Positions 5,424 through 64,000 of a stretch of DNA of 64,000 bases are shown one piece after another (position 1 is the stretch's first letter; every line of letters starts with the position of its first letter). The position numbers and the translations under genes are program-made. The DNA is from Thermoplasmata archaeon (GTDB taxonomy: Archaea > Thermoplasmatota > Thermoplasmata > WALJ01). The stretch is taken from positions 67,685 through 131,684 of the forward strand of contig JALTFR010000032.1 of NCBI GenBank assembly GCA_027006785.1. The letters are read 5' to 3'. The notes below the pieces were generated by a model. That model saw only the letters and a program-made list of their open reading frames with translations, ran no database searches and was not told the origin of the DNA.

Positions 5424-5425
5424 GT

Positions 5426-11304: not shown

Positions 11305-11337
11305 AGCCTTAAATCCACCCGGTTCTGCGCTCTCCCG

Positions 11338-12083: not shown

Positions 12084-12091
12084 GAGCGCAG
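12058..12091 (+). repeat. left copy of 34-bp imperfect direct repeat (covers last 8 codons and stop of the DUF190 gene)
   Basis: TTCACAGCAAGGGCAGCAAGGCCTGAGAGCGCAG; 31/34 identical to the copy at 18387..18420. Confidence 0.8.
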
Positions 12092-12137
12092 AAAAGAGAC
12101 AGTGCATCTTATAATATAAAAAATGTAAAAAGATTTA

Positions 12138-34243: not shown

Positions 34244-35230
34244 ATGAGAATTGAGAAAAATGGTGAAAAAATGAAAAATAGGGTGATATTAAGCCTTGTG
34301 GCAGGGGGAGCCGTCTTTTTGCTCCTTCTAACGTCATTTTCCGGAACAGTCTCCGCATCTGTTGAGATAGACAGCTATCCTACTTTCAGCAGCGGGGACT
34401 ACTTCAATTATGATGTAAACGCCACGGGATTCGCCCGTTCCATGGAAGAGCGCTTTAGAGATGCGAATATAGAGATAGAAAGCAGTGTTGCCGAGATAAA
34501 GGTGGCAGGATATGACAAGGTTACAGACGACAGCCATACATATGATTGTGTGGTTATGGAAATGTCAATAGATATAAAAATGAGAGTGAGAGGAAGCTAT
34601 GATGGCGAGAATTATTCCGGAGAGATACACCAGATAATATCAGACAGGATGTGGCAGACAAGGTCGGATGCTAAGATGCTGAAGGATGAGAGTTCCAGTC
34701 ACGAATACACGAATATGACCATGCTATCCATCGGAAAAACCACCAGTCAGGAGAGCAAGGATATAAGCTATACATTTTATGACAATCCTGTGGAAGAGTA
34801 CAAAATACCGGTAAAGTCAGGAGAAAAATGGAGTACCACAACCGGTGAGAGAATACACCTGATAAGTATGAAGAGAGTCGGAACGGGAAAATGGCAGGCA
34901 TATGAAAGGAATTACACATCTACGGTGACGAAGGATTACGAGGTTCTCTCTGAGCAGAGCATAGATGTTAAAGCAGGAAGCTTTGATACCCTGAAGATAA
35001 AGGAGAGCAAGAACGGAAGTGAGAACTGCACATATGAGTACGTCACCTCAAAGGGTATGGTGGTAAAACTCGATATGAAATCAGGAAATGAGACCATAAT
35101 GACAGCAGAGCTCAGTTCTTACAGACTATCCGACTCAGATTCGAAATCAACGTCGGCACCAGGCCCTCTGGCATCAATTCTGGCGCTCTCTCTTGTCATG
35201 ATTGCATACGCATACCGTAAAAATAGGTAG
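34244..35230 (+). CDS. secreted protein with PGF-CTERM-like C-terminal sorting signal
   Basis: Signal peptide (MKNRVILSLVAGGAVFLLLLTSFSG); C-terminus ...STSAPGPLASILALSLVMIAYAYRKNR, i.e. a PGx tripeptide, TM helix and basic tail. Confidence 0.55.
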   Translation: MRIEKNGEKMKNRVILSLVAGGAVFLLLLTSFSGTVSASVEIDSYPTFSSGDYFNYDVNATGFARSMEERFRDANIEIESSVAEIKVAGYDKVTDDSHTYDCVVMEMSIDIKMRVRGSYDGENYSGEIHQIISDRMWQTRSDAKMLKDESSSHEYTNMTMLSIGKTTSQESKDISYTFYDNPVEEYKIPVKSGEKWSTTTGERIHLISMKRVGTGKWQAYERNYTSTVTKDYEVLSEQSIDVKAGSFDTLKIKESKNGSENCTYEYVTSKGMVVKLDMKSGNETIMTAELSSYRLSDSDSKSTSAPGPLASILALSLVMIAYAYRKNR

Positions 35231-36535: not shown

Positions 36536-37014
36536 TCCTCCTCATGGGTCTTTATTATAAGAACCGGTCTTTTTGTCCTTCTTAGGACCCTTATCGTGGT
36601 GGAGCCGAGAAGTTCCTTGGAATACCCAAGCTTTCCATGTGAGGGCAGGAGAATCATGGATACATTCTCATCATCTGCGAACTTCACTATTTCCTCATAG
36701 GGTATGCCAATCCTCACAACGCTCCGCACCCTTTTAGCTCTCAGCATCCTTCGGTATTCTTCTTCCCTTTCTTTGAGTGCCTTAATGGCATTTTCCTTTG
36801 CTCTGGATATCACGTCCTTCATCTCCTTTTTCTCGCTCTCATACATGAAGGAGTATCCGTTGAGCATATCCTCTATGTATCCCTCATCTATCACATGGAG
36901 AAGTATGCACTCCTCCACTTCCGCCGTGTTTTCCTTCTCGAATCTCTGTATGGCTCTTATGGAGCCCTTACTGAAATCCGTTGGAAACAGCACCTTTCTG
37001 AACATCTTTTTCAC
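36532..37014 (-). CDS. universal stress protein (UspA family)
   Basis: VLFPTDFSKGS...MILLPSHGKLGYSKELLGSTTIRVLRRTKRPVLII; ATGA coupling with acr3. Confidence 0.75.
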   Translation of the reverse strand: MKKMFRKVLFPTDFSKGSIRAIQRFEKENTAEVEECILLHVIDEGYIEDMLNGYSFMYESEKKEMKDVISRAKENAIKALKEREEEYRRMLRAKRVRSVVRIGIPYEEIVKFADDENVSMILLPSHGKLGYSKELLGSTTIRVLRRTKRPVLIIKTHEED

Positions 37015-37125
37015 CTCATTTCAGGATTTTTTGAACTGCCGAGCTTGACACGGTATATACGCATTACGCCGAAATCGGTCTGCTTCGGCGAAAAACTTAA
37101 ATCAATAACCATCTTTACTGAAAGT

Positions 37126-37563
37126 ATGAGAAAAATCATAAATTCAATGAACAGAAGCCTTTACCGTGAAACAAAGGCCCTGATGATGCACTGGGGCTTC
37201 GGAGAGACATGCTCTTCCATATACGCACTTCTCTTTGTCAGCGAGGAGCCCCTTACAGCCAAGGAAGTGGCAGACGAACTGGGCTACGCCTATTCATCCA
37301 TGATAAACGAACTGAACAAGCTCAGGAGAGAATCTGTGATAAGCCGGGAAAGGAAGGGGCGAAAGTATGTCTATTCATCACGTAGGGATGTGGAGTCCAT
37401 ACTTCTCAGGGAAAAGGAGAAAACACTATCGATCCTCAACCGCATGAATGAAATATTGAATAATAAAAAAAATCTTCTGGACTCATATGTAAGACAGTCC
37501 ATACGGAAAAGCATAGATATAATAGAAAGGGGGAAAAATAATGCAAAAAAAGGAGAAAATTGA
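37126..37563 (+). CDS. winged-helix transcriptional regulator (ArsR/GbsR-like)
   Basis: LLFVSEEPLTAKEVADELGYAYSSMINELNKLRRESVISRERKGRKYVYS is a wHTH; diverges from the usp-acr3 pair and overlaps the downstream radical SAM gene. Confidence 0.55.
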   Translation: MRKIINSMNRSLYRETKALMMHWGFGETCSSIYALLFVSEEPLTAKEVADELGYAYSSMINELNKLRRESVISRERKGRKYVYSSRRDVESILLREKEKTLSILNRMNEILNNKKNLLDSYVRQSIRKSIDIIERGKNNAKKGEN

Positions 37564-39058
37564 AAAGAAAGAGAATGAGATGGATGAAGCAGGAATTCTG
37601 AAGTATCTTCAGGCGGTGATGGACAGCAAATTTGCGCACTATGTCATGAAAGAGATGGCGGAAACAAAGAAGATAGAGAAGTCGCTGGCGATATATGCCG
37701 GTGTGGAAAAGCCCTCTGGAGTGCGGGAGTCGCTGAGAGCCAAAACGGTATCGGCAGCAATAGAACGGGCAGCAAAACTGTTTCATGCCACTCCGGATCA
37801 GATAAAGGATTTGCTGAAGGACGCATATATGAGGAAAGGATTCAGTGCAATAATAAAGGGCATTGCAGAATACGGCATAACGAAGCCGCAGAGGCTTTCC
37901 GCTCCATTTATGGTGGTCTGGAACTTCACCAACCAGTGCAATCTCAGGTGCAAACACTGCTACGCAAATGCGAAGCCATACCCTGCACCGGATGAACTGA
38001 GTCTGGATGGAAAGATGGAGGTTCTGCGACAGCTTGACGAGGCTGGGGTTGCGGCCATATCATTTTCCGGAGGAGAACCACTCATAAACAAGGACTTCTG
38101 GCCTGTCGCAAAAAAAGCATCGGAACTGGGATTTTATGTGAGCGTCGCCACGAATGGAACGCTTATTACGAAAGATGTGGCCCGCCGTCTGAAGGAAATC
38201 GGTGTCAGGTACGTGGAGATAAGCATAGACGGACCGAATGCTGAGATACACGATGAGTTTCGTGGGGTGAAGGGTGCCTTTGAGCGCTCCATAACCGGAA
38301 TCAGGAACCTCAAAGAGGTTGGGGGAATAGATGTTGGAATAGCCACTGTTGCAACCCATCACAACCTTGCACAGATGCCCGAGATGATCAAGCTTGCCAG
38401 AGAACTGGATGTGGACAGGCTCATCGTCTTTAACTTCATACCCACAGGTCGTGGAAAGGATATAGTCAAGGATGACCTTACGCCGCAGGAGAGGGAGGAA
38501 CTCCTGAACTACCTCTACTCCGAATGGTCCAAGGGAGATATGCAGGTACTTTCCACATGCCCGGCCTATTCCCGCGTATCTCTGACCGCGGTTCTGAAAG
38601 ACAAGGGCGGCAAGGTATCTCCCACGCATTTTGCAGATGTCGAACTTCCGGAGGAGTACATGAACGCGGGCCAGACCCTTGCGGAATTTATCGGAGGATG
38701 CGGTGCAGGAAGGATATACTGCTCCATAGATTATAACGGAGATATAGAGCCCTGCGTCTTTTTGCCCATAAAAGTAGGAAATGTCATAAAGGATGGTTTT
38801 CAGCATGTATGGGATACAAGCGAGGTATTCCTGAAACTGAGAGACAGGGATGCCGAGGAATATGCCTGTTCCACCTGTCCGTTCCGCTACGTATGCGGCG
38901 GATGCAGGGCCAGAGCCTATGCCTATTTCGGAGATATACAGGGCCCCGATCCAGGATGCATCATGCAAAAGGACAGATGGGAAGAAATCACAAATAAGAC
39001 ATCTGAGGAGCTTGGGCACCATCACGAAACGGTGAAACGAGAGCATGCACTGTCCTGA
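37541..39058 (+). CDS. radical SAM enzyme with C-terminal SPASM domain (AhbD/NirJ/anSME-like) and ~100-aa N-terminal extension
   Basis: NQCNLRCKHCY (CxxxCxxC), GGEPL, and C-terminal CSTCPFRYVCGGCRARAY auxiliary-cluster Cys motif. Confidence 0.8.
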   Translation: MQKKEKIEKKENEMDEAGILKYLQAVMDSKFAHYVMKEMAETKKIEKSLAIYAGVEKPSGVRESLRAKTVSAAIERAAKLFHATPDQIKDLLKDAYMRKGFSAIIKGIAEYGITKPQRLSAPFMVVWNFTNQCNLRCKHCYANAKPYPAPDELSLDGKMEVLRQLDEAGVAAISFSGGEPLINKDFWPVAKKASELGFYVSVATNGTLITKDVARRLKEIGVRYVEISIDGPNAEIHDEFRGVKGAFERSITGIRNLKEVGGIDVGIATVATHHNLAQMPEMIKLARELDVDRLIVFNFIPTGRGKDIVKDDLTPQEREELLNYLYSEWSKGDMQVLSTCPAYSRVSLTAVLKDKGGKVSPTHFADVELPEEYMNAGQTLAEFIGGCGAGRIYCSIDYNGDIEPCVFLPIKVGNVIKDGFQHVWDTSEVFLKLRDRDAEEYACSTCPFRYVCGGCRARAYAYFGDIQGPDPGCIMQKDRWEEITNKTSEELGHHHETVKREHALS

Positions 39059-39170
39059 GGCCTTTATGAACAACCTGCTCAGGGGGTGGGCCCCACAGAC
39101 CTGTCTCTATCAGAAATGACAGCATCGGCCCTGAAGAGAATAGGTTCAATCAGAGTAAGGAGGTATTTTA

Positions 39171-39737
39171 ATGAGTGAGAAAGAGAACGGAAAAATGAAT
39201 AAGGTGGCGTTCTGCCCGACGATGGGCGTTTTCATGGAGCGCCTCGACGATATGAGCGATATAGAACAGGTACCTGTGGGAAGTGCGGGCCAGGCCCTCG
39301 TCCTTCTTAGAACCGGACAGGTTGAGGGTGTCATTATCGGAAGGTACGCTAAGGCAATGGAACTGCCGAACAACGCGAAATTCGTTAAATTGATGGGTGG
39401 AAGAACACTGGTATATCTCCAGAAAATGGGTGTGCCAGTGGAGGCGTTGAAGGATGTGGATGTGCTCACCTATCTCAAACCGGAGGAAATAGCGGATATA
39501 TCCGGTCTTTTCAGGCATGTGGAGCATCTGGAAAGCCTGGATGACTGCCTGAGATACGGGCTGAAAATACCGGTGATAATAGACTGGAACGACTATCGGG
39601 ACGACTTCGAGCTTCTCATACCTGTCAATGAAAGAGGGGACAAGGTGCTGGATTTCAGGGCTCCGGTGCTATATCACACCGGCATTCCGCAGGAAACCGT
39701 TTCCGAGATTGAAAAAAGGATAGGTGAGAAATCATGA
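39171..39737 (+). CDS. hypothetical cytoplasmic protein with periplasmic-binding-protein-like (MqnA/NMT1-type) fold prediction
   Basis: GGAGGT RBS 9 nt upstream; alternating beta-alpha pattern (KVAFCPTMGVF...ALVLLRTGQVEGVIIGRYAK); fold assignment tentative. Confidence 0.4.
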   Translation: MSEKENGKMNKVAFCPTMGVFMERLDDMSDIEQVPVGSAGQALVLLRTGQVEGVIIGRYAKAMELPNNAKFVKLMGGRTLVYLQKMGVPVEALKDVDVLTYLKPEEIADISGLFRHVEHLESLDDCLRYGLKIPVIIDWNDYRDDFELLIPVNERGDKVLDFRAPVLYHTGIPQETVSEIEKRIGEKS

Positions 39738-40141
39738 CCGCAACAGACTTAAATATGGAAAAAGAATCGAGAAGCATGAAGATAGCGATACCGAGCACGG
39801 ATGACAGAGGCTTTGACAGCCAGGTTGAGCAGCATTTCGGAAGGGCGAGGTACTATACCATCGTGAACACGGAGGATATGAGCGCGAAGTCGGTTCCCGT
39901 GCCATTTGAGAACCACGGGCCCGGCGATATACCGAATTTTCTGAAAGAGCATGGCGCTAATGTCATAATAGCATACGGAATGGGAGGAAAAGCCGTTCAG
40001 TTCTTTGACGATATGGGCATAGAGGTCATAACAGGTGCCATGGGAAGGGTCGGCGATGTGGTGGATGCCTACATGAAGGCAAAGCTGGCCGTGGACAGCA
40101 ACTGGAAGGACGATCCCGGATTCGGAGAGCACAAACACTGA
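39734..40141 (+). CDS. NifX/NifB-type dinitrogenase FeMo-cofactor-binding-like domain protein
   Basis: MKIAIPSTDDRGFDSQVEQHFGRARYYTIVN...NVIIAYGMGGKAVQFFDDMGIEVITG matches the NifX_NifB (PF02579-type) signature; ATGA coupled to the upstream gene. Confidence 0.7.
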   Translation: MTATDLNMEKESRSMKIAIPSTDDRGFDSQVEQHFGRARYYTIVNTEDMSAKSVPVPFENHGPGDIPNFLKEHGANVIIAYGMGGKAVQFFDDMGIEVITGAMGRVGDVVDAYMKAKLAVDSNWKDDPGFGEHKH

Positions 40142-40197
40142 AACCCTGCGACCAAAACGAATTTTAACTATGACCGTATTAAACCCCCGGTGATAGT

Positions 40198-40455
40198 TTG
40201 GATGCTCTACCTGTGATCGCAGGCCTGGTGAGCGCTCTCGGCCTGCTCATGATGCTGATATCCCTGATAGCCTACAGGAGGACAGGGATGAACAGGATTC
40301 TGGCAATGGCCGGGATATCCGCGATACTGATGCTCAAGGGAATACTGATGCTGCTGGGCGTCTGGAATGTGGTGGAACTCAGCTACGAGATGATGGCCGC
40401 TGTGGACCTTTTGATGGCGTTTGTTCTGGCAGGGGCCATATTCGGAAAGGAGTGA
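40198..40455 (+). CDS. small membrane protein (2-3 TM helices)
   Basis: 85 aa, hydrophobic helices, no Cys. Confidence 0.4.
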   Translation: MDALPVIAGLVSALGLLMMLISLIAYRRTGMNRILAMAGISAILMLKGILMLLGVWNVVELSYEMMAAVDLLMAFVLAGAIFGKE

Positions 40456-40459
40456 CATG

Positions 40460-40975
40460 GAGAAGATACTTCAGCTGGAGGCGAGAAGGCGCGTATTCGA
40501 AGCGGTGCGCGATAATCCCGGAATACACATGAGGGGTCTCGAGAGAGTGACGGGTATGCCCATGGGAACCCTGCGCTACCAGTTGAGGTACCTTGAGAAG
40601 CACGGCCTCATAGTTGAGAGGAAGGAGGGCAGGATGGTGACATACTACCCCTCCGAGGGAAAGAACATCGTTGACGCTCAGGACAAGAGATATCTGGCGA
40701 TACTCAGGCAGGAGATACCCCGCCTCATAGTCCTTCACCTCATGATGAACCCGAACTCCACGCACGGTGACCTCAAACCACACTTCAAGATATCCCCTTC
40801 GACCCTCTCTTACCACCTGAAGAAACTGACGGACTCGGGAATTCTCATAAAGGAGGATGGCAGATACAGGGTCAGGGACGAGGAGAGGGTGGCGAAGGTG
40901 CTCATCACATACAGGCAGACCTTCGTGGATGCCATGGTTGACGCGTTCGTGAGGTTCTGGGAGGGAAGGAAGTGA
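40460..40975 (+). CDS. tandem winged-helix (ArsR-like x2) transcriptional regulator
   Basis: Two consecutive wHTH units (GIHMRGLERVTGMPMGTLRYQLRYLEKHGLI and THGDLKPHFKISPSTLSYHLKKLTDSGIL). Confidence 0.6.
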   Translation, partial: EKILQLEARRRVFEAVRDNPGIHMRGLERVTGMPMGTLRYQLRYLEKHGLIVERKEGRMVTYYPSEGKNIVDAQDKRYLAILRQEIPRLIVLHLMMNPNSTHGDLKPHFKISPSTLSYHLKKLTDSGILIKEDGRYRVRDEERVAKVLITYRQTFVDAMVDAFVRFWEGRK

Positions 40976-42576
40976 GCGTTCTCATCCTCGACGCATATGT
41001 GGACGAGCCTGCGGCATTGGGTGTTCCGCCGTACATATCTCAGTACCCGAGATACCTCTGGGGAGCGATGAGATCTGCTGGCAGAGAGGTGCATTATGCG
41101 ACCATAGACCAGTACAGGCATGGAAAGGTGTCGCTGGATTACGAATATGTGGTGGTGATAGGCGGTGCAATAGTGCCGGGCAGGTACATGAGAGGGCTTC
41201 CCGCATCCATGAAGGAGCTCAGGGAGATAGAGCTCTACATCAAAGGGACCTCGATACTCGGCGGTCCCGTGGCCATGTTCTCGAAGGAAGCGGAGGCTAT
41301 GGGATATGACCATGTGGCGAAGCTGGACACGGAGGCATCGGTCTTCGACCTCATAGAAAAGGGAAAATTCACACAGCGCAGGAGGACATACGAGGAATGG
41401 CTGGAATGGTCGGTGAAAGGCGCTGAGATGGTGAAAGAGCACCCTGATTTTCCACACTATGTCATAGCCGAGATAGAGTCCTTCAGGGGATGCCCGAGGT
41501 ACTTTACTGGAGGCTGTTCCTTCTGCATAGAGCCGATGTACGGAAAGCCCGCTTTCCGCCCGGCTGAGAACATAATAGCCGAGATAAAGGGGATGTACGA
41601 TGCAGGGCTGAGAAATTTCAGGATCGGAGCGCAGACAGACATATTCTCCTACATGGCGGAGGGAATTGGAAAATACGAGGCTCCGGAACCCAACGTGGAT
41701 GCCATTGAGGAGTTATTCAAAGGAATATGGGACTGCTGCCCTGATATAGAGGTTCTTCACCTGGACAATGCGAACCCTTCCACCATCGCAAGGCACCCTG
41801 AGGAATCGGAAAGGGTGGCGGAGCTTCTGGTGAAGTACACGACACCGGGAAACACCTTGGCGTTCGGAATGGAGAGCGCCGACCCTGTAGTTATAGAGGA
41901 GAACAACCTGAACGCAACGCCGGATGAGGTGATGTTAGCCATCGAGCTTCTAAACAGGGTTGGAAAGGAGGGGGGAGAGAACGGATTGCCCCGGCTCCTT
42001 CCCGGATTGAACTTCCTCGGAGGTCTGAAAGGAGAGAGCAGGCGGACATACCGCCTCAACTACGAATTCCTGAAGGAAGTTCTGGACAGGGACCTCATGC
42101 TCAGGAGGATAAACATCCGGCAGGTCGCACCCATAAGGACCGAGTTCCCCCGCATCCTTTACAGGGACTTCATGCACTTCAAGAACAGGGTGAGAAGGGA
42201 GATAGACGCTCCCATGCTTGAAAGGGTCGCACCCGCTGGCATAGTTCTGAGAAAGGTGTATCTGGAACTCAACAAAGGCGGAGTGACATACGGGCGGCAG
42301 ATAGGCTCATACCCGCTGACCGTTCAACTGCCATACAGCACCGATGTGGAGCGCTCCGTGGATGTCCTCATAACAGGCCACAGGGAGAGGAGCATAGGCG
42401 GTGTGGAGGTCCCGCTGAACATAAACACGGCTCCTCGCAGGGCGATAGAGGAACTGCCCAATATAGGAAAGAAGAGAGCACTCCGCATAGTCACAGGCAG
42501 GCCGTATAGGAGCCCCGACGATTTGAAAAGTGTTCTGGACGAAAATCTTGATCTGGCTCAGTATATCACATTTTAA
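40972..42576 (+). CDS. radical SAM enzyme with N-terminal Rossmann/B12-binding-like domain and C-terminal helix-hairpin-helix nucleic-acid-binding motif
   Basis: FRGCPRYFTGGCSFC Cys cluster; TIM-barrel core; C-terminal NINTAPRRAIEELPNIGKKRALRIVTGRP HhH. Confidence 0.7.
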   Translation: MSVLILDAYVDEPAALGVPPYISQYPRYLWGAMRSAGREVHYATIDQYRHGKVSLDYEYVVVIGGAIVPGRYMRGLPASMKELREIELYIKGTSILGGPVAMFSKEAEAMGYDHVAKLDTEASVFDLIEKGKFTQRRRTYEEWLEWSVKGAEMVKEHPDFPHYVIAEIESFRGCPRYFTGGCSFCIEPMYGKPAFRPAENIIAEIKGMYDAGLRNFRIGAQTDIFSYMAEGIGKYEAPEPNVDAIEELFKGIWDCCPDIEVLHLDNANPSTIARHPEESERVAELLVKYTTPGNTLAFGMESADPVVIEENNLNATPDEVMLAIELLNRVGKEGGENGLPRLLPGLNFLGGLKGESRRTYRLNYEFLKEVLDRDLMLRRINIRQVAPIRTEFPRILYRDFMHFKNRVRREIDAPMLERVAPAGIVLRKVYLELNKGGVTYGRQIGSYPLTVQLPYSTDVERSVDVLITGHRERSIGGVEVPLNINTAPRRAIEELPNIGKKRALRIVTGRPYRSPDDLKSVLDENLDLAQYITF

Positions 42577-47777: not shown

Positions 47778-48590
47778 ATGGAAGTCCCGGAACTCGTAAG
47801 AAAGGCCTTGGAATACAGAGGCTTTACCGTGGTATCCGATTCCGTAATGCTTGTAGTCAGAGGAGTCGAAGGAGAGTATGTCGTGCTGCTCAAGCATGAA
47901 AACGACACGCCTCCAATTCAGATAGAGGGAAAGAAACTTGTTATTTCCCTTGTAGACGATGCAGAACCGGAGGGCGATATATTCTGGAGCCGCGCTGACT
48001 TTGAGGCATATATAGGACAGGCTCTCCTTTCAGAGGCACTGGGATCCGAAAATCCTGTGGATCTCATCTCCTCATTCGAGGAGACCTTTACAGACAATAG
48101 CGAACCAATCGCCGCCAGATTGCCCGATTCAGAGGTTCTTGGCGAGGAAGAGGGTGTGATAGCCTCGATAAAGGAGACCGTACCTTTTCATGCCATATAT
48201 TTCTCGCTGGAAAGCGATGGGGCCACGGATGCCGGGATAATACTTGTCGATGCTACAGATGGCGTTCCATACAGGGCCGAGGAGCCGCTCTTATCGGGCA
48301 GAGAAATGACGGATCTGGGAGAAGAGAGGAAGGAGCCAACCGTATCGCCCGAGAATGCAAATGACATCGCCATAGATTACATCATATCTTTGCACAGCAG
48401 AGAGGTGGAATCCACAGAAGAGATGGGCTCTGTAACGGTTGTCGAAAAGAAGATTGTCGCCCCATCTCTGTCCGATATATCTTCAAGATATCTGGGAATA
48501 ATTCATATTCCTGTGCTGGTACTGGAAAAAGAGAATCTGACAGAGATAATAGATGCGAGTGGCATTATAGGTTTCAGAAAGCATTATTAA
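47778..48590 (+). CDS. acidic hypothetical protein
   Basis: 270-aa soluble ORF, pI strongly acidic, TATA-like CTTATATATTT ~35 nt upstream; no confident domain. Confidence 0.4.
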   Translation: MEVPELVRKALEYRGFTVVSDSVMLVVRGVEGEYVVLLKHENDTPPIQIEGKKLVISLVDDAEPEGDIFWSRADFEAYIGQALLSEALGSENPVDLISSFEETFTDNSEPIAARLPDSEVLGEEEGVIASIKETVPFHAIYFSLESDGATDAGIILVDATDGVPYRAEEPLLSGREMTDLGEERKEPTVSPENANDIAIDYIISLHSREVESTEEMGSVTVVEKKIVAPSLSDISSRYLGIIHIPVLVLEKENLTEIIDASGIIGFRKHY

Positions 48591-51362: not shown

Positions 51363-52901
51363 TCAGAACTGGTCAAAATCACCCTCTTCTTCCTCTTGGT
51401 CGGCTTCGCTGTCTTCAAGACCTTCTTCATCGAGCTCAATGTCATCGAAATCCTCTTCCTCTTCTTCGTCGGTCTCCTCGTCCTCTTCTTCATTCTCGGT
51501 TGTTCCGAGGTCGAAGATGAGCGACTGCGCAGCGCTCTCGTAGAATTTCGCCAGTTCTTTGAGTTCTTTAGGTATTATTAGCTGTCCGTTGGTTATCTGT
51601 GTTATCCTCTTCAGTGTGTCTATGGCTATTTCGGCTCTTTCCCTCTTCTTCTGAAGCCTCTCTCCTTCAGCACCCTCGGGAATTTCCACAAGGTCTTCGG
51701 GGGTGTCTCCGATATACACAGCGTTGATTATAACGCCACGTGAGGGTGGAAAGCGCTCTTTAACGAAGTTTATTATGGATTCGGAGACCTCCAGAACATC
51801 TTCTGTCTTTGCGAAACTTCCCTTCCATCCGTTGAACTCTCCATCTGAGAGTATGATTATCATGGTGGGCATCTTTTTCTTGGAGTCCTTTTCCATCAGG
51901 CTGAGAAGTTTATCGAGCTCCTCAAATGCGTTGACACCGTTGGTTGGCTTGTTGCTCTCCTGAGGTATGTAGGTGAAGAGCATCTTTATGAGCATTTCTT
52001 TGTACTGCTCTGTGGTGTCTACTCCTGCAGCCCCTATCTGGAGCCAGTATCTTATATTTCCCTTGTATTTATATGCTGCGGTCTTTGCCTGGCTGGAGTA
52101 GGTTATGAGTGCGACCCTCTCACTGAGCTCTCTCTCGGCCTTTTCCGAGAAATAGAGGAGAACGGCTGTGATTGCGCCGTGTATTCTCAGGACCTCTTTG
52201 CTCTTCTCCACGCTTTCCACCGTCTCTTTCAGCATTGTGAACTTCTGGTTGGCCATGAGTTTGTTGATTATCGGGTCATCGGAGAGCTTCATTATTCCGG
52301 GGGTGTTGTGGATGTAGTTAAAATACATCGAACCGGACGTATCCACCATGAGTATTCCGTTGAATGGTGATGTCACTGAGACCTTAATCTGCGTTTTGTC
52401 GGTGTAAACTGCATAAGGGAATGGATTTATCTTTGCAACCGTGAGGGTTATTCCCTTTTCATCCCAGTATATCTTAGAGCCGTGGTTGAACACAGGTTCC
52501 TTTTCCATGAAAAAGTTATGTATGGCCTCTCCACCATTCTCGTTTATCTCTTTGACTATCTCGAGAAGTTCGCCCCGCTCACTTCCCTCCATCTCAACAC
52601 GCATGACCGCTTCTTCGGCCTCAAGTGGTTCGGCAGGGAGTATGTCGAGGGCATCACCGTTGGTTGCACCGGACAGCTGAGCGCTCGTCCTGTTTATATA
52701 AGCCTCTCCTTTTTTTATCTTGGAATCGAACAGAAGTCGGTAATATTTCGATTCTCCTCTGTCCCTGTTGAATACCTCGACGATATCTCCTTTTTTAAGG
52801 CCCATCTTCTTTCCTACTGTCGAGTTGATCTTTATTACCCATGAATCTACATTGTCTTTGAGTACTGCTGCGAACGGCTCCATATTGAACACCTGAACCA
52901 C
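51363..52901 (-). CDS. von Willebrand factor A domain protein with AbrB/SpoVT-like N-terminal domain and poly-acidic C-terminal tail
   Basis: N-terminal VIKINSTVGKKMGLKKGDIVEV (swapped-hairpin pattern); vWA MIDAS VDTSGSM and ...IILSDGEFNG; last ~45 aa almost entirely Glu/Asp. Confidence 0.65.
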   Translation of the reverse strand: MVQVFNMEPFAAVLKDNVDSWVIKINSTVGKKMGLKKGDIVEVFNRDRGESKYYRLLFDSKIKKGEAYINRTSAQLSGATNGDALDILPAEPLEAEEAVMRVEMEGSERGELLEIVKEINENGGEAIHNFFMEKEPVFNHGSKIYWDEKGITLTVAKINPFPYAVYTDKTQIKVSVTSPFNGILMVDTSGSMYFNYIHNTPGIMKLSDDPIINKLMANQKFTMLKETVESVEKSKEVLRIHGAITAVLLYFSEKAERELSERVALITYSSQAKTAAYKYKGNIRYWLQIGAAGVDTTEQYKEMLIKMLFTYIPQESNKPTNGVNAFEELDKLLSLMEKDSKKKMPTMIIILSDGEFNGWKGSFAKTEDVLEVSESIINFVKERFPPSRGVIINAVYIGDTPEDLVEIPEGAEGERLQKKRERAEIAIDTLKRITQITNGQLIIPKELKELAKFYESAAQSLIFDLGTTENEEEDEETDEEEEEDFDDIELDEEGLEDSEADQEEEEGDFDQF

Positions 52902-55631: not shown

Positions 55632-56756
55632 TTATTCCGCTATTATGAACAGGATCTTCAGAGATGGTGACATACCCCCGAACTCCTTCAGAAGTTCCTC
55701 GTAGATGGGGAGTGCATCCATGCTTTCCATGGCATCCCTGACATCGGCGAAGACCATGCAGCCCTCTGTCCTTTCTGCAAAGGAACTTATGATGAATCGT
55801 ATCATCTCCACATGCTCTTCTATAAGCGGGTTCAGGTGGTCCGGCCCGAGCTCCTTGGATATCTGGAATGCAGGTATGTCCCTGCCAACCCTTTTTCTGA
55901 ATGAATCGGGGTCGTCCGATACGAATGCCAGTATCGGCACATCATCCTTGATGGCCCTTTCGAGCCTTCTGTACGCTGCCTCTCTGTCCACGACCTCAAA
56001 TCCGGGTTCCACGGTTCCGGAATGCTCCTCAGGAGACACCAGAAATGCACGGTAGCGGTATATCGCATAAAGGATGAAGAGCGAGAATATTGAGAAGGAC
56101 ACGGTTGTGAGCGGGTATGCGCTCTCCGCCAGGAGCATGGGTATGAACGATGATACCGTGATAAGTGTGACGGCCACTATGAACCCGGAAAGCCCCACCA
56201 TTATTTGCATTCTTAGTATTTTCATATCACTCTTGATGTATTTGTATATCATGATTACAGTGAACACCAGAGCCATGGAGAATATGTAGATGGTGTACGC
56301 AGTATAGGTTGTAGATGGAACTATTCCCCAGATGCTCTGTCCAAGTCCCTTGTATGGCTCCATATCAGCGATTATCATGTAGCCGGGGTTGACTATGCCG
56401 AGTATTGCGAAGACGAGCGATATTCCATAGAAAAAGTATATGGCGGATTTCCTCCACCTTAACCTGAGCATATATGGAAATACCACTGAGAAATGCACGA
56501 ACGCCGCAGGTGCCAGGGCCATGCCGATAAAGAGGAACTGCGCTCCGAACCATGCCACCCACTCATCGGCTGGAGGCGGACCCGCCATCCTTTCTATCAT
56601 CTCTCCGAAGGACCATATGAAGAAGGAGAAGAAGAGCATGAATGCTGCGAGGTTTCCAGGCTTCCTTATATCCGAAAGGAATAGCCGTATGAGGATCGCC
56701 GCCCCGAGTATAACAGCGAAGAGCGCAGGCCAGAAAGCATGAGGGAACCACATCAA
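55632..56756 (-). CDS. 7TM membrane sensor with C-terminal DUF835-like cytoplasmic domain
   Basis: Seven N-terminal TM helices then a soluble domain with the DUF835-like ending ...PILAFVSDDPDSFR...MVFADVRDAMESM. Confidence 0.5.
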   Translation of the reverse strand: MMWFPHAFWPALFAVILGAAILIRLFLSDIRKPGNLAAFMLFFSFFIWSFGEMIERMAGPPPADEWVAWFGAQFLFIGMALAPAAFVHFSVVFPYMLRLRWRKSAIYFFYGISLVFAILGIVNPGYMIIADMEPYKGLGQSIWGIVPSTTYTAYTIYIFSMALVFTVIMIYKYIKSDMKILRMQIMVGLSGFIVAVTLITVSSFIPMLLAESAYPLTTVSFSIFSLFILYAIYRYRAFLVSPEEHSGTVEPGFEVVDREAAYRRLERAIKDDVPILAFVSDDPDSFRKRVGRDIPAFQISKELGPDHLNPLIEEHVEMIRFIISSFAERTEGCMVFADVRDAMESMDALPIYEELLKEFGGMSPSLKILFIIAE

Positions 56757-58676: not shown

Positions 58677-59735
58677 GTGCGTTATATCTATGCTCTGTGT
58701 ACATGGGGCTTGGGCCATGCGTCCCGTTCTCTGCCTGTTATGAGGGCACTTCTGAAAGAAGGCCATGAGATAACCATACTGACATCCGGCAGAAGCCTGA
58801 GGATGCTCAGGAATGAGTTGGGCGATTCGGTGGAATATGTGGACCTCGTATCCTATCCCGACCCATACTCGGCCGGGCGCTTTTCATTCTACCTCAAGTT
58901 CGGGCTCAAGGTCCCAGGCATGATAAGGACATTCAGGAAGGAGCACGAGATAGTGAAGAAACTGATGGAGGAGAAAAAATACCACCGTATAATCTCTGAC
59001 AACCGCTACGGTGTTTACAGCCACAGAATACCATCGTTCCTGATAACCCACCAGTTGAGGCTCATAGCGCCAAAGAGGATAGGCTTCATAGAGAGGATAG
59101 GGGAGCGCTTCGTTGCCGCATATCAGGACGATTTCGACGCATTCATAGTTCCTGATGATGAGGAGGGAACTCTTTCCGGGGAACTTTCACACGATCTGCG
59201 CTACCTTCCAAAGAAGAAAATACTGTACTCCGGCCCGCTTTCCGACTTCTCCAGAAAGGAGACGGAGCAGGACATAGACCTGCTGATATCCATATCCGGC
59301 CCGGAGCCACAGAGAAGCCTTTTCGAGAGGATCGTTCACGACGAGCAAAAGAATTTTCCGAAGAACACCGTGATAACCCTTGGAAAGAGCGAGACATTCA
59401 AAGAAGGCAGCTGGAAGAGCGCGAAGGTCTACACATATCTCAGCAAGGAGGAGAGGGAGGACATAATGAACCGCTCGAAGCTCATACTCTCCCGCTCAGG
59501 ATATTCCACGATAATGGACCTAGCCATCCTGGGAAAGAGGGCCATATTCGTTCCGACACCCGGTCAGACAGAGCAGGAATATCTTTCCGACTACCACATG
59601 GAGAAAGGGACATATTACTCAATGGACCAGTCCGTCTTTTCCCTGAGGAAAGCTTTATCAGAATCTAAGAGATACAGTGGAATAGCGATGGACGGCAGGA
59701 AGTCCGTGGAAAGGATACTTGACCTGGTGGGATGA
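58677..59735 (+). CDS. GT-B fold glycosyltransferase (GT1/GT28-like, MGT/UDP-glycosyltransferase type)
   Basis: CTWGLGHASRSLPVMRALLKEGHEITILT N-terminal Rossmann and C-terminal nucleotide-sugar-binding half. Confidence 0.65.
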   Translation: MRYIYALCTWGLGHASRSLPVMRALLKEGHEITILTSGRSLRMLRNELGDSVEYVDLVSYPDPYSAGRFSFYLKFGLKVPGMIRTFRKEHEIVKKLMEEKKYHRIISDNRYGVYSHRIPSFLITHQLRLIAPKRIGFIERIGERFVAAYQDDFDAFIVPDDEEGTLSGELSHDLRYLPKKKILYSGPLSDFSRKETEQDIDLLISISGPEPQRSLFERIVHDEQKNFPKNTVITLGKSETFKEGSWKSAKVYTYLSKEEREDIMNRSKLILSRSGYSTIMDLAILGKRAIFVPTPGQTEQEYLSDYHMEKGTYYSMDQSVFSLRKALSESKRYSGIAMDGRKSVERILDLVG

Positions 59736-60346
59736 AAATGGATACGAATGATATATGTGAGCACCTGAAGAACGACGGGGTCATCGTTTACCCGACCGAT
59801 ACATTGTACGCTCTGGGCGCTCTCGCGTTCTACCATGAAAAGGCCATAATGAAGGTCTTTGAACTGAAGAGGATGCAGCCAAAGGTGCTCAGCGTTGCAT
59901 TCCCAGACTTTGCGACAGCAAGGAAGTACGCCGATGTTCCCCATGAGTTCTCCCACATATTCCCTGCGCCGCTGACGGTCATCGCACATTCATACTCCAG
60001 ATGGAACCATGTGACCCTACATGATAAGATGGCAATCAGGATACCGGCCAACGACACGGCCCTGGAACTTCTGAGGGAATGCGGGCCCATGACGGCGACG
60101 AGCGCCAACATACACAACGGCCCGAACCTGACACTTCAGGAGATAAAGGAGACATTCGGAGATGAGGTTCTCATAGTCGATGGGGAGGAACCGAAGTACA
60201 TGCAGCCGTCCACCATCGTGGATGTGGTTGAGGGAAAGGTAGTCAGGGCAGGAGCATATCCAGTGCATCAGATACCCAGACACACAGAACGGCGGGAGAG
60301 GAACCCATCGGGCTTGCCATATCCGATGGACGAGATACTGCGCTAG
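59732..60346 (+). CDS. tsaC: L-threonylcarbamoyladenylate synthase (YrdC/TsaC type)
   Basis: VIVYPTDTLYALGA and SANIHNGP motifs of YrdC. Confidence 0.8.
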   Translation: MKMDTNDICEHLKNDGVIVYPTDTLYALGALAFYHEKAIMKVFELKRMQPKVLSVAFPDFATARKYADVPHEFSHIFPAPLTVIAHSYSRWNHVTLHDKMAIRIPANDTALELLRECGPMTATSANIHNGPNLTLQEIKETFGDEVLIVDGEEPKYMQPSTIVDVVEGKVVRAGAYPVHQIPRHTERRERNPSGLPYPMDEILR

Positions 60347-61320
60347 AGGTAGCCGTACCTTTTCAGAGTATCGCCGAGAACCTCATTGACCACCTTTATT
60401 TCGTCGGGTCTCAGGTCCTTCTTCCACCTTCCGACATGCCCTTTGCTCAGGTCTATGTCCATCATCTTTTTCTCGAACCCTATCCCGAGAAAATCACATA
60501 TCTTCCTCAACTCTTTTTCAGGGTTCTTTATGGCATCCTCCATCCTCACCTCATAGTATGACCCGTCCGGCATCTTCCTCTTCTCTTCTTCCCATTTGTC
60601 GAGTATGTTCCTTATCCAGATGGCATTGTCGTGAGCGCTGTTACCACCCCATGACTTGCTTTTGTAGGAACTGACCACATCTCTCATGTCCCGGTAGATG
60701 TGTATGAGTTTCATATGAGGGAACATCTCCAGAAGGAATGTTGCGTGCAAGATGTTGAAGGGCGTGTGGTCCAGCCACATAGTCTTTCCTGCCCTTTTCA
60801 TGGCATGATATGTGAGATGGTTCACAAAATCTCCGGAGATATGTGCAATCTCCTCTCTTTCAAACCTATTTGCAACATAGACCTTCGGGGATAGATGCGC
60901 TCCACTGCCGGTCCAGAACCCTTTGAACTGACGCTCCACCACCTTTTCCATGAAAGCATCGAACTCGCTGATGAATTCCTTTCTCGGCATTATATCACGA
61001 TAAGATACCCATTGTGCGTACATGGGCATAGACATTCCGAGTCTTTTAATCATCTGTCCGCCAATCCTCCTTACCTGTCCCTTTAGCACGGGGGGATATA
61101 TCTGTTTGAGCATCATCTCCCTGAAATCCCGTATCGCTCTGTCGGCCTTCCAGGGCGACCACTGGTCGGAGAGCGCGGGCACGAGGTCTATCAGCCCGTG
61201 AGGATCTATCATGAACCTTGTCTCGAACGGATACCGGTATATTTTGGAATGAAGCCCCAGTATCTGAGACATGATGGTGGTCCCGCTCCGCCCCGTTCCT
61301 CCGATGAATATCTGTCTCAC
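60343..61320 (-). CDS. PAPS-dependent sulfotransferase family protein
   Basis: 5'-PSB motif IFIGGTGRSGTT and 3'-PB motif IYRDMRDVVSS characteristic of sulfotransferases. Confidence 0.7.
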   Translation of the reverse strand: MRQIFIGGTGRSGTTIMSQILGLHSKIYRYPFETRFMIDPHGLIDLVPALSDQWSPWKADRAIRDFREMMLKQIYPPVLKGQVRRIGGQMIKRLGMSMPMYAQWVSYRDIMPRKEFISEFDAFMEKVVERQFKGFWTGSGAHLSPKVYVANRFEREEIAHISGDFVNHLTYHAMKRAGKTMWLDHTPFNILHATFLLEMFPHMKLIHIYRDMRDVVSSYKSKSWGGNSAHDNAIWIRNILDKWEEEKRKMPDGSYYEVRMEDAIKNPEKELRKICDFLGIGFEKKMMDIDLSKGHVGRWKKDLRPDEIKVVNEVLGDTLKRYGYL

Positions 61321-62609
61321 ACTATCACCCCCGATCCTATTCTGATGTGCGGGGTTTTCAATTTTCTGTCTATCGTCCTTCTTCCATCTATAATGGCCTC
61401 CAGCCCAAAGGAATCGTAGTCAATGCTCTTGAACTCGTCCCAGTCCGCCTGTATCATGCATACATCGGCATCTTTCAGGGCAGATTCTGCGCTCTCCGCA
61501 TATTCTATCTCAGGAAATACCTGTTTGAAGTTATCCATGGCCTTCGGGTCATAGGCTATTACCTGAGCGCCCTTTTCAATGAGGCCTTTGACAAGGGGCA
61601 TCGCACGGCTCTCCCTTATGTCGTCCGTATCTGGCTTGAACGCAAGGCCGAGGACAGACACCTTCTTTCCATTCAGATCTCCCACCACTTTCTCAGCCAG
61701 TTCAATCATCCTGAGCGGCTGCCTTTCGTTGAGTTCAAGAACCTCCTCCAGAAGTTCAGGCTCATACCCGTTCTCCTTTGCCAGAGAAACGATGGCTTTC
61801 ACATCTTTGGGGAAGCATGAGCCTCCGAAACCAGCACCTGCGTTCAGGAAATACGGAGAAATGCGGTGGTCCATCCCCACGCCTTCCATAACATCGTAGA
61901 CCTCTATACCAAGCCTGTCGCAGATGTTCGCTATCTCGTTTGCGAAGCTTATCTTCGTTGCAAGGAATGAGTTCGCGGTGTACTTTATCATCTCGGCGGT
62001 GGTCGGTGTTGTAACAAGTATAGGCGCGTCTATTCTCTCATATATCTCGCGGAGCAGGTCTTCGCTCCTTTCATCCAGCACTCCGAGAACTATTCTGTCC
62101 GGGTTCATGCTGTCTTCGAGCGCCACGCCTTCTCTCAGAAATTCGGGGTTCATTGCCACGCTGAATCCCTCTCCTGCCTTCTTTCCGCTCTCCTTTTCAA
62201 CTATCGGAAGAACAAAGCCCTCAGTGGTCCCCGGAACAACGGTGCTCTTCACCACTATTAGATGCCATCCCTTTTCTGCGATGGCTTTTCCCATGTCCCT
62301 TGAAACGCTCTCTATGTATCTCAGGTCTATGCTCCCGTCATCTCTGGAGGGTGTTCCGACGGCTATGAATGTGACATCCGTGCCCTTAACGGCCTCTTTC
62401 ATATCGGTCGTCGCCCTTATCTTCCCTTCCTTCACGAGTTTTGAGAGAAGGTCGTCCATTCCCTTCTCATAGATCGGAGATTTTCCGGAATTGACCATCT
62501 CGACCTTTTCAGGTATCACATCCACGAGGATGACATCGTGGCCGAGACTTGCGAAGGTGACTCCTGTGACCAGACCCACATAGCCGGTTCCTGCAATGGA
62601 GATGCGCAT
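61317..62609 (-). CDS. ugd: UDP-glucose/GDP-mannose 6-dehydrogenase family nucleotide-sugar dehydrogenase
   Basis: MRISIAGTGYVGLV (NAD), catalytic GFGGSCFPKD Cys motif. Confidence 0.85.
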   Translation of the reverse strand: MRISIAGTGYVGLVTGVTFASLGHDVILVDVIPEKVEMVNSGKSPIYEKGMDDLLSKLVKEGKIRATTDMKEAVKGTDVTFIAVGTPSRDDGSIDLRYIESVSRDMGKAIAEKGWHLIVVKSTVVPGTTEGFVLPIVEKESGKKAGEGFSVAMNPEFLREGVALEDSMNPDRIVLGVLDERSEDLLREIYERIDAPILVTTPTTAEMIKYTANSFLATKISFANEIANICDRLGIEVYDVMEGVGMDHRISPYFLNAGAGFGGSCFPKDVKAIVSLAKENGYEPELLEEVLELNERQPLRMIELAEKVVGDLNGKKVSVLGLAFKPDTDDIRESRAMPLVKGLIEKGAQVIAYDPKAMDNFKQVFPEIEYAESAESALKDADVCMIQADWDEFKSIDYDSFGLEAIIDGRRTIDRKLKTPHIRIGSGVIV

Positions 62610-62656
62610 ACACCGGCATCGAAGCCTCTATTAAATATCTTCCCCAATCTTCTTAT

Positions 62657-63523
62657 ATGCAGGTGCGATGCAGTACCGTGAAAGCAGTCATACCGGTAGC
62701 CGGTCTGGGAACGAGGATGCTGCCCTTAACAAAATCGCAGCCAAAGGAGATGCTGCCCGTTTACGACCGGCCCGCGATACAGTATGTGGTGGACGAGGCC
62801 ATAGATTCCGGGATAAAGGACATACTGCTGATAACCGGCAAGGGAAAGAGGGCTATAGAGGACTATTTCAGCCCGAATCTTGAACTTGAGAACTTCCTTC
62901 GCGAGAAGGGAAGGGAGGACGATATACCTCTCATTCGGAACATATCTCCGGGTGTTGACATATACTATGTCCGTCAGAAGGAGCCACGGGGGCTGGGTGA
63001 TGCGGTGATGTACGCTGAAAAGCATGTGGGAACCGAACCCTTCATGGTGCTTCTCGGCGATGACCTGATACTGAACGATGTGCCGGCCAGCAGGCAGATG
63101 ATGGAGGCATACTGGAAATACGACGCTCCGGTCCTTGCGGTGGAGAAGGTGCCGCATGAGGATGTATCCAGGTACGGCATAATCGCGCCCGGAAATGAAC
63201 TTGAGAAAGGCGTCTTCCAGGTGGAAGGGATGGTGGAGAAACCTGAGCCTGATGATGCACCCTCCGATTACGGCATAATCGGCCGATACCTGCTGACCCC
63301 CGAGATATTCACATACCTCCGTGAAACAAAACCCGATAGAAAGGGCGAGATACAGCTAACAGACGCGCTCCGCAGGTACAACAGGGAGCATCCCATGGTC
63401 GCCGTTGAACTCGATGGTCTCAGGCTCGATGTCGGAGGCATGGAGGGATGGCTCATGGCCAATATAAAGGCCGCCATCCTGAAGGAGCCGTCCCTGGCCG
63501 GTAGAATAAAGAAGGAACTATAG
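62657..63523 (+). CDS. galU: UTP--glucose-1-phosphate uridylyltransferase (GalU-like sugar nucleotidyltransferase)
   Basis: KAVIPVAGLGTRMLPLTKSQPKEMLPV signature; true start may be the in-frame GTG at 62678. Confidence 0.8.
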   Translation: MQVRCSTVKAVIPVAGLGTRMLPLTKSQPKEMLPVYDRPAIQYVVDEAIDSGIKDILLITGKGKRAIEDYFSPNLELENFLREKGREDDIPLIRNISPGVDIYYVRQKEPRGLGDAVMYAEKHVGTEPFMVLLGDDLILNDVPASRQMMEAYWKYDAPVLAVEKVPHEDVSRYGIIAPGNELEKGVFQVEGMVEKPEPDDAPSDYGIIGRYLLTPEIFTYLRETKPDRKGEIQLTDALRRYNREHPMVAVELDGLRLDVGGMEGWLMANIKAAILKEPSLAGRIKKEL

Positions 63524-64000
63524 CTCTATTTTTCTTCCTGTCTTTGCCGATTCCATGGCCTTTTCTATCAGTTCCACAGCGTTCATTCCGGAATACATAT
63601 CGGCCACAGGCATCTTCCTCGATTCTACGGATGACACGAAGTCCCTCAGTTCCTCTTTCAGAGGCTCTTTATATGGGATCGTCACGGTTCTCATGCCCTC
63701 GTTCCGAAGTGTAAAATCACCGCCTTCATCATTCAGCCCGCTCTCGTATATCTCGATGATATCTGGCTTCAGGTAGTCTATGCGCGCCGACATCCCTTCG
63801 CCTGTTATCTGGAACTCCCGTACCTTGTTCCCTATCGGGGATAGCCAGCTCTCGAAGATGTATCCTGTGACATCTCCGTAATCCATCCTGAGATGCGCCA
63901 CATCCTCTATCCCTTCCCAGATGTTCTCCTCGATGCTGCACAGCACGCTGTCAGCCTTCCTTTCAAGGACATATGAGTATGTGTCCACATCGTGTATCGC
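63518..64000 (-). CDS. Gfo/Idh/MocA-family oxidoreductase, C-terminal part (N-terminus beyond window end)
   Basis: C-terminal alpha/beta domain typical of Gfo/Idh/MocA (…ELIEKAMESAKTGRKIEL*); ORF open to the window edge. Confidence 0.55.
   Translation of the reverse strand, partial: AIHDVDTYSYVLERKADSVLCSIEENIWEGIEDVAHLRMDYGDVTGYIFESWLSPIGNKVREFQITGEGMSARIDYLKPDIIEIYESGLNDEGGDFTLRNEGMRTVTIPYKEPLKEELRDFVSSVESRKMPVADMYSGMNAVELIEKAMESAKTGRKIEL

Follow-up and report, generated by a model that had tools for sequence, protein, structure and literature searches.

The stretch of DNA analysed here, called the window, is a 64-kb segment of contig JALTFR010000032.1 from a Thermoplasmata archaeon. Near its end lies a gene for a sulfotransferase of the 3′-phosphoadenosine 5′-phosphosulfate (PAPS) type, which overlaps a gene for UDP-glucose 6-dehydrogenase (ugd) and is a credible candidate, judged from its sequence and setting, for the sulfation of surface sugars by an enzyme type other than the one known in archaea. 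The features of this locus, numbered from the first letter of the window, are the following.

58677-59735, plus strand: GT-B glycosyltransferase (Glyco_tran_28_C, 9e-10; Glyco_trans_1_3 at the N-terminus)
59732-60346, plus strand: TsaC/Sua5, a housekeeping protein of tRNA t6A synthesis (PF01300, 1.7e-33)
60343-61320, minus strand: sulfotransferase, 325 aa, GTG start (PF13469, 3.6e-30)
61317-61332, minus strand: putative translational-coupling junction read from the sequence, with Shine–Dalgarno-like GGGGGTGAT at 61332-61324 and a GTGA overlap at 61320-61317
61317-62609, minus strand: UDP-glucose 6-dehydrogenase (ugd), 430 aa, first gene of the ugd–sulfotransferase bicistron (profile matches)
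62610-62677: divergent ugd/galU intergenic region with A/T-rich TATA-like boxes, read from the sequence, a putative promoter region
62657-63523, plus strand: GalU, UTP-glucose-1-phosphate uridylyltransferase (TIGR01099, 333 bits, cutoff 326.8)
63518-64000, minus strand: Gfo/Idh/MocA oxidoreductase, C-terminal part, truncated at the window end (profile match)

A preliminary description of this DNA had named the same genes, families and positions, with which the open reading frame (ORF) listing and the profile searches agree, tsaC intervening after the GT-B gene. It had also described a stop/start coupling of the sulfotransferase to ugd, and this is borne out by the sequence: the GTG of the sulfotransferase (61320-61318) overlaps the TGA of ugd (61319-61317) as GTGA, and the Shine–Dalgarno-like element lies 3 nt upstream of this GTG. 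From this layout, the sulfotransferase gene is predicted to be co-transcribed and translationally coupled with ugd. At its other end it converges with tsaC, a housekeeping gene outside the sulfation system, with a 4-nt overlap, while the GT-B gene begins 28 bp after nadA and overlaps tsaC by 4 nt. The galU gene diverges from ugd across a gap of 47-68 bp, and the Gfo/Idh/MocA gene converges on galU with a 6-nt overlap, on the same minus strand as ugd and the sulfotransferase. The earlier statement that galU and Gfo both lie on the opposite strand and diverge from ugd is thus right for galU but not for Gfo.

The galU ORF as listed opens at ATG 62657 (MQVRCSTVKAV...), the TIGR01099 match starts at residue 9, and the length in relatives is 281 aa. 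The true start is probably GTG 62678, giving MKAVIPVAGLGTR, which would leave 68 bp for a divergent promoter region that contains two TATA-like boxes. One box, TTTAATA, lies on the minus strand some 22 nt ahead of the ATG of ugd, and the other, CTTATAT, lies some 20 nt ahead of GTG 62678; both are candidate promoter elements.

The sulfotransferase matches the Pfam profiles PF13469 (Sulfotransfer_3; 106.3 bits, cutoff 27) and PF00685 (Sulfotransfer_1; 55.2 bits, cutoff 22). Both PAPS-binding motifs recognized in the preliminary description are present, the 5′-phosphosulfate-binding loop GGTGRSGTT at residues 7-15 and the 3′-phosphate-binding motif RDMRDVVSS at residues 210-218, the latter aligning to RDGRASVHS of the tyrosylprotein sulfotransferase (TPST) TPST2. 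Across 115 homologues, residues G7, G8, G13, T14, G42, R210, S218, W224 and W243 are invariant, and T9, G10, R11, S12, T15, E33, R35, D39, W54, Y101, W136, H207, D211, D214, E257, E261 and R298/W299 are kept in at least 90%. An AlphaFold2 model built from the alignment of these homologues reached a mean pLDDT (predicted local distance difference test) of 96 and a pTM (predicted template modelling score) of 0.92, and all 38 matches that Foldseek found for it in the PDB at E ≤ 1e-3 have the sulfotransferase fold, retinol dehydratase included. The top matches are all sulfotransferases with bound PAPS or 3′-phosphoadenosine 5′-phosphate (PAP). The ratio of nonsynonymous to synonymous substitution rates (dN/dS) against orthologues of about 80% identity is 0.07-0.08, in the same range as that of ugd. 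The motifs, profile scores, model and dN/dS together show that the enzyme is intact and under purifying selection. It has no hydrophobic or transmembrane-like segment, which makes it soluble. We therefore regard the protein as an intact, selected and soluble enzyme of the PAPS-sulfotransferase fold, for which PAPS would be the sulfate donor.

The acceptor has to be approached through relatives and gene neighbours. Human and tick TPSTs rank first in the Foldseek search (E ~1e-8, TM-score 0.5-0.58, 16-18% identity), followed by mycobacterial Stf9 and Stf1 and then by the sulfotransferase domains of olefin synthase (OLS) and CurM, which places the model in a TPST/CurM-like structural branch of the Sulfotransfer_3 family. 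In a HMMER sequence search against the PDB, TPST was likewise the best match (E 9e-6, two short stretches aligned), with R11, E33, R35, R210 and S218 aligned to R78, E99, R101, R183 and S191 of TPST2, which we take to be PAPS-binding and catalytic residues, E99 being the catalytic base. By this alignment, Glu33 is the putative catalytic residue of the window protein. The TPST-like glutamate, together with closest solved relatives that are TPSTs and then acyl carrier protein (ACP) or natural-product sulfotransferases, would fit a non-carbohydrate acceptor, i.e., a protein tyrosine (as for TPST/RaxST), a lipid or a small metabolite, the linkage to ugd then being historical. However, identities of 12-18% and TM-scores of 0.5-0.58 amount to a family-level resemblance only, and those to the TPSTs (16-18% identity), combined with the sugar-nucleotide context, fall short of orthologue-level similarity to TPST/RaxST. 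Moreover, as described below, the linkage to sugar genes survives rearrangement, spans two domains of life and recurs in about 30% of 159 sampled loci, for which chance is hard to invoke, and some orthologues sit within clusters with AglB, flippase and glycosyltransferase (GT) genes. A non-carbohydrate acceptor is thus considered very unlikely, and a sugar acceptor is preferred.

The enzymes encoded next to the sulfotransferase point to nucleotide sugars. The ugd product contains all three UDPG_MGDP_dh domains, scores 491 bits against TIGR03026 and 526 bits against the AglM model (under its cutoff of 670), and has as its best PDB relative the Pyrobaculum enzyme 3vtf (2.9e-116). Only the last 156 codons of the Gfo gene lie within the window; the full gene is found on a contig with 99-100% identity (L086), where its best model is the archaeal UDP-GlcNAc 3-dehydrogenase NF040723 (199 bits, cutoff 450). 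In two relatives of about 80% identity (L001 and L003), Gfo is the last gene of an operon in the order hexapeptide acetyltransferase, DegT aminotransferase, Gfo, and DegT scores below all equivalog cutoffs. From these comparisons, the Gfo of the window appears WbpB-like.

This association is conserved in archaea. Among the matches listed, the nearest species-representative genomes are metagenome-assembled genomes of uncultured Thermoplasmata with 79%, 64%, 63% and 61% identity, and across archaeal orthologues of 39-80% identity in Thermoplasmata and the DHVE2 lineage the gene is kept beside Ugd, GalU and the Gfo/DegT/acetyltransferase amino-sugar module. The loci of about 80% identity (L001-L006) share the whole window arrangement, and ugd and the sulfotransferase gene are adjacent in every Thermoplasmata relative in which both were found (L001-L008 and L011, 43-80% identity). 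At 64% identity (L092), the ugd–sulfotransferase pair stands alone amid housekeeping genes, with no GT within 7 kb; at 43% identity (L011), the order is hexapeptide acetyltransferase, DegT, Gfo, (GalU), Ugd and sulfotransferase, followed by a sulfatase-like gene. The DHVE2 loci (L012 and L019/L091, 39-41% identity) have the sulfotransferase directly after Gfo, with GalU and Ugd just downstream.

One of these DHVE2 loci (L091, the same as L019) carries a sulfate-supply operon at 2142-6632, directly upstream of the block of hexapeptide acetyltransferase, DegT, Gfo and sulfotransferase. It encodes the following.

Sulfate adenylyltransferase (NF003166, 533 bits, cutoff 387)
Adenosine 5′-phosphosulfate (APS) kinase (TIGR00455, 201 bits, cutoff 139)
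A DHH phosphoesterase, a 187-aa mini-sulfotransferase and a Na+/sulfate symporter

Downstream follow a WecA-type initiating transferase and three GT4 genes, and a third sulfotransferase gene lies 9 kb downstream. Going by its gene content, this archaeal locus forms a self-contained sulfation island. In Methanothermococcus thermolithotrophicus, a DHH-family enzyme reportedly acts as a PAP phosphatase; if the DHH protein here does likewise, the locus would combine sulfate import, activation and transfer with the recycling of PAP.

Several GTs and a flippase adjoin the orthologue in L087, L089 and L091, and the first two of these loci bear on the kind of glycan that is sulfated. The L087 orthologue, from a Thermococcus-like archaeon, shares 48% identity with the window protein and 74% with that of Thermococcus gorgonarius (P0027), which is itself a full-length homologue with 43% identity to the window protein. 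Its locus reads, in one direction, AglB, GT2, Alg14/Alg13-like, Ugd, NTP-transferase, GT4 and sulfotransferase, and then sulfatase-like, unknown, GT, sulfatase-like and flippase; the AglB protein has WWDYG at residue 495, and its gene lies 5.6 kb upstream of the sulfotransferase. In L089 (Thermoplasmatales), the sulfotransferase gene has Gfo/DUF354 on one side and, on the other, two GT4s together with a flippase, an AsnB-like amidotransferase and a PglD-like acetyltransferase; large PKD/laminin-G surface proteins are encoded upstream. This second locus is O-antigen-like (Wzx-type flippase, amidotransferase, acetyltransferase), most members of the family are bacterial and without AglB-type N-glycosylation, and AglB was not found in the window, all of which would fit a sulfated polysaccharide, secreted or capsular, or a glycolipid as the product instead of a protein N-glycan. 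However, the L087 orthologue lies downstream of a co-directional aglB, and the surface proteins encoded in the window are very rich in sequons; besides, archaeal N-glycan and polysaccharide pathways use the same gene types, so that context cannot separate the two. A polysaccharide or glycolipid product is a possibility to be kept in view, though on balance an unlikely one, and an N-glycan remains the favoured product. Pfam gave no match for several conserved neighbours of the orthologues (595 aa in L087, 658 aa and 286 aa in L089, 213 aa in L091).

Sulfatase-like genes of the PF00884 family also lie beside orthologues, at 11070-12353 and 15403-16743 in L087 and at ~12260-13612 in L011. Because of this adjacency, PAPS-type and sulfatase-fold enzymes may share pathways.

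The family extends far beyond archaea, with at least 409 relatives among species-representative genomes, most of them bacterial, and its hosts among the matches listed are mostly marine and sediment bacteria (Balneolaceae, Flavobacteriia, Anaerolineae, Planctomycetes, Rhodobacteraceae). No more than 6 kb from the sulfotransferase gene, a homologue of DegT is encoded in 24 of the 79 genome loci sampled and, in an independent sample, in 24 of 80 metagenome loci (~30%); a hexapeptide acetyltransferase usually accompanies it, as does in many cases a Gfo oxidoreductase. The DegT and sulfotransferase genes are immediate neighbours, 15-112 bp apart, in nine genome loci (Balneolaceae, Flavobacteriia, Pirellulaceae, Rhodobacteraceae) with the order hexapeptide acetyltransferase, DegT, sulfotransferase; a Roseovarius locus (L025) reads GalU, Ugd, Gfo, hexapeptide acetyltransferase, DegT and sulfotransferase, the gene set of the window cluster, and orders with the sulfotransferase before Gfo, hexapeptide acetyltransferase and DegT occur in metagenome loci. 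That the genes adjoin so closely, and do so repeatedly in different phyla and in both domains, appears to be more than their common presence in glycan clusters would lead one to expect. PAPS supply is encoded beside the sulfotransferase in some bacterial loci, either as sat/cysDN with cysC (L031, L109) or as cysC alone (L082, L085, L153). In a rough neighbour-joining tree, the archaeal proteins of the subgroup form one clade nested among bacterial members that are often DegT-linked. A protein of 'Candidatus Frackibacter' (P0012; Halanaerobiales, a bacterium) shares 49% identity with the window protein, more than many archaeal homologues do, which hints at a transfer of the gene between Archaea and Bacteria.

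The position of the gene also raises the question of the stage at which sulfate would be added. Its ties are to sugar-nucleotide enzymes over GTs (DegT abutment, the Gfo–hexapeptide acetyltransferase–DegT orders, ugd coupling), the isolated L092 pair has no GT within 7 kb, and the enzyme is soluble, as would be expected if it sulfated an activated sugar, UDP-glucuronic acid (UDP-GlcA) or a UDP-2,3-diacetamido-uronate, and a GT then installed the sulfated sugar. However, the adjacency of genes is uninformative on the stage, GT4 genes flank the gene in L087 and L089, and we know of no GT pathway in which an O-sulfated nucleotide sugar is the donor. In Halobacterium salinarum, moreover, it is the completed dolichol-phosphate-linked glycan that is sulfated (PMC11980604). 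Sulfation at the level of the UDP-sugar is thus considered quite unlikely, and sulfation of an assembled, lipid-linked glycan is preferred.

We propose, with a probability of about 0.62, that the window protein is a cytoplasmic PAPS-dependent sulfotransferase serving a surface-glycan pathway that is fed by the linked UDP-sugar enzymes. In this pathway, GalU would make UDP-glucose and Ugd would make UDP-GlcA, while the Gfo/DegT/hexapeptide-acetyltransferase set, which continues past the window end, would make a 3-acetamido (2,3-diacetamido-type) sugar. The sulfotransferase would then, on the cytoplasmic side, O-sulfate a uronic-acid or acetamido-uronic-acid residue in a glycan destined for the cell surface, with the glycan most plausibly lipid-linked. 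The favoured glycan would be an N-glycan, with an S-layer glycan or an exopolysaccharide as alternatives. The preliminary description had named a plain hexuronate of the glycan as the sulfated residue. The PAPS-type enzyme and the conserved linkage to nucleotide-sugar genes uphold this proposal in part, and a hexuronate acceptor fits since ugd is coupled to the gene in Thermoplasmata; but the acceptor could also be something other than a plain hexuronate. Across the family, the 3-amino/3-acetamido sugar module is the commonest partner, which would make a (di)acetamido-uronic acid at least as likely.

Several observations weigh against this proposal. The only match to a carbohydrate-sulfotransferase profile is negligible (NoeE, 15 bits, cutoff 500), and the nearest solved relatives, at 12-18% identity, have protein tyrosine, acyl-ACP or antibiotics as their acceptors. 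All characterised enzymes are too distant for an acceptor specificity to be carried over, and the subfamily is without a characterised member. The 64-kb window contains no WWD[YWF]G motif in any frame, i.e., AglB was not found in it, nor does it contain an APS-kinase or ATP-sulfurylase (sat/cysC) motif or Pfam match. No clear flippase adjoins the cluster, the MatE protein being 16 kb and a GT2 33 kb away. The linkage is tighter to sugar-nucleotide enzymes than to GTs, and neither the stage nor the class of glycoconjugate is fixed by the context. Finally, the literature searched has sulfated glycans only in haloarchaea, where the enzymes are of the sulfatase fold (PMC11980604, PMC11407970).

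The GT-B gene, the only GT gene within 5 kb of the sulfotransferase, adds to these points. It had been counted as part of the cluster in the preliminary description and is indeed nearby, but its synteny with the sulfotransferase is limited to close relatives of about 80% identity, and it belongs to a nadA–GT–tsaC unit. It was therefore rejected as a functional partner, and its membership in a sulfation system is doubtful. Its product is GT28-C/MJ1255-like, with a remote match to TIGR00661 (MJ1255 family; 41 bits, cutoff 196), and a sequence search of the PDB found no relative of it.

In a broader reading, Bacteria and Archaea would share a pathway leading to a sulfated 3-acetamido or 2,3-diacetamido (uronic) sugar, with this family as its unrecognised fourth or fifth enzyme and with sulfation possibly at the level of the UDP-sugar. 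In Archaea, the same enzymes would carry out a PAPS-dependent sulfation of surface glycans in groups other than the haloarchaea (Thermoplasmata, DHVE2, Thermococcus); they would differ from the sulfatase-fold enzymes Agl30 and Agl31, although such enzymes are sometimes co-encoded with them. This reading is speculative and, taken as a whole, rather unlikely.

The window is otherwise mostly housekeeping (tRNA synthetases, fumarase, primase, NadA, kinases, transporters), and its predicted surface proteins, along with the GT2, are the following.

12138-18257, minus strand: surface protein, 2039 aa, with beta-helix/NosD, PQQ beta-propeller, Big_5 and CarboxypepD_reg (67 sequons)
23061-24710, plus strand: Ig-like surface protein, Big_13/Big_7 (20 sequons)
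24813-26858, plus strand: Ig-like surface protein, Big_13/Big_7 (35 sequons)
26884-27696, minus strand: GT2

The three surface proteins have 3.3-5.1 N-X-S/T sequons per 100 aa, compared with fewer than 1 in the cytosolic proteins of the window, and because of this richness the organism probably N-glycosylates heavily. A membrane-associated protein (34244-35230, plus strand) has 2.1 sequons per 100 aa. The sulfated glycan had been assigned in the preliminary description to the surface proteins encoded in the window, an assignment that finds no support here: their genes lie 33-48 kb from the sulfotransferase gene with housekeeping genes between, and a specific link was rejected on this ground.

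Some other ORFs of the window deserve mention. The product of 6726-7853 (plus strand, 375 aa) joins three CBS domains to a C-terminal Ribosomal_S30AE domain (hibernation factor-like; 33 bits, cutoff 23.7), a fusion that is unusual for an archaeon. That of 55632-56756 (minus strand, 374 aa) matches HisKA_7TM, the N-terminal 7TM region of histidine kinases (3.7e-15), and no kinase/ATPase domain was seen for it in the Pfam scan. The region 36895-42576 (plus strand) encodes a TrmB-like regulator, a radical-SAM/SPASM protein (37541-39058), small ORFs and a radical-SAM protein with an HHH motif (40972-42576), and may be a peptide- or cofactor-maturation cluster. ORFs at 51363-52901 (minus strand), 47778-48590 (plus strand) and 299-1422 (plus strand), of 512, 270, 218 and 156 aa, were without a Pfam match at E ≤ 1e-3; the two short ones nearest the start of the window (299-1422) have two transmembrane-like segments each.

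The protein is a new member of a well-known kind of enzyme in an expected context, and standard annotation would already call it a sulfotransferase. The value of the finding lies in the module conserved across domains, in the PAPS-supply and AglB linkages of the relatives, and in a prediction for non-halophilic archaea. So far, the genetic evidence on glycan sulfation in archaea concerns only sulfatase-fold proteins of haloarchaea. Since PAPS-type genes are conserved in clusters with sugar-nucleotide genes or aglB in Thermoplasmata, DHVE2 and Thermococcus-like archaea, sulfated surface glycans and a second, classical sulfation chemistry are predicted in non-halophiles. This prediction is testable because Thermococcus gorgonarius carries the full-length homologue. 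In addition, the family-wide link to Gfo, DegT and the acetyltransferase suggests that marine bacteria have a sulfated amino-sugar not yet described, and the sulfatase-like genes beside PAPS-type genes raise the question of how labour is divided between the two enzyme types.

Among the systems with which the window protein can be compared, TPST1 and TPST2 (PDB 5wrj, 3ap1) share the GxxRSGTT loop, the RDxR...S motif and a glutamate shortly past the loop. Unlike them, the window protein has no membrane anchor, contains extra helical insertions, and is a cytoplasmic protein encoded in a sugar-nucleotide operon. The CurM/olefin-synthase domains and Stf1/Stf9 belong to the same structural branch (Foldseek E 4e-7 to 3e-6), but they are only 12-15% identical, have acyl-ACP, lipid or unassigned acceptors and occur in unrelated genomic contexts.

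In Pseudomonas aeruginosa, WbpA, WbpB, WbpE and WbpD make UDP-2,3-diacetamido-2,3-dideoxy-glucuronic acid, and an archaeal counterpart exists in Methanococcus. The genes considered here follow the same pattern, with a sugar 6-dehydrogenase, a Gfo 3-dehydrogenase, a DegT aminotransferase and a hexapeptide N-acetyltransferase. In contrast to that pathway, for which no sulfotransferase has been described, the dehydrogenase here is nearest to UDP-glucose rather than UDP-GlcNAc dehydrogenases. The literature searched did not connect any sulfotransferase with a module of the Wbp type (WbpB/WbpE) or with diacetamido sugars.

The sulfotransferases of rhizobial Nod factors (NodH/NoeE) and of bacterial capsules and O-antigens follow the same logic, being soluble enzymes encoded with sugar-nucleotide genes and GTs, some of them with a dedicated cysC/sat. 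They differ from the window protein in their negligible sequence similarity and their other acceptors, and none is archaeal. In Vibrio sp. KMM 8419, the combination of a sulfotransferase, sugar genes and cysC/sat is regarded as a hallmark of sulfated-polysaccharide clusters (PMC11641403).

For archaeal glycosylation, a characterised PAPS-type sulfotransferase was not found in the literature searched; that on Thermoplasmatales and Marine Group II mentions PAPS genes, though not for the lineage of the window. Agl7 of Haloferax volcanii was reportedly implicated earlier in archaeal glycan sulfation. The sulfotransferases of archaeal N-glycans had been presumed unidentified when the window was first described, a view now outdated since Agl30 (VNG1056C) and Agl31 (VNG1057C) of Halobacterium salinarum were reported in 2025 to sulfate its N-glycan, on the basis of deletion and heterologous expression (PMC11980604). 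They have the sulfatase/alkaline-phosphatase fold, and neither PAPS nor the sulfate donor is discussed in that report (PMC11980604). The window protein has no PF00884 or alkaline-phosphatase match in the Pfam profile search. Agl30 and Agl31 resemble it in the role proposed here, as they act on uronic acids of a surface glycan on the cytoplasmic side before flipping and are encoded among glycosylation genes. Unlike them, however, the window protein is a P-loop sulfotransferase of the PAPS type and bears no similarity to either.

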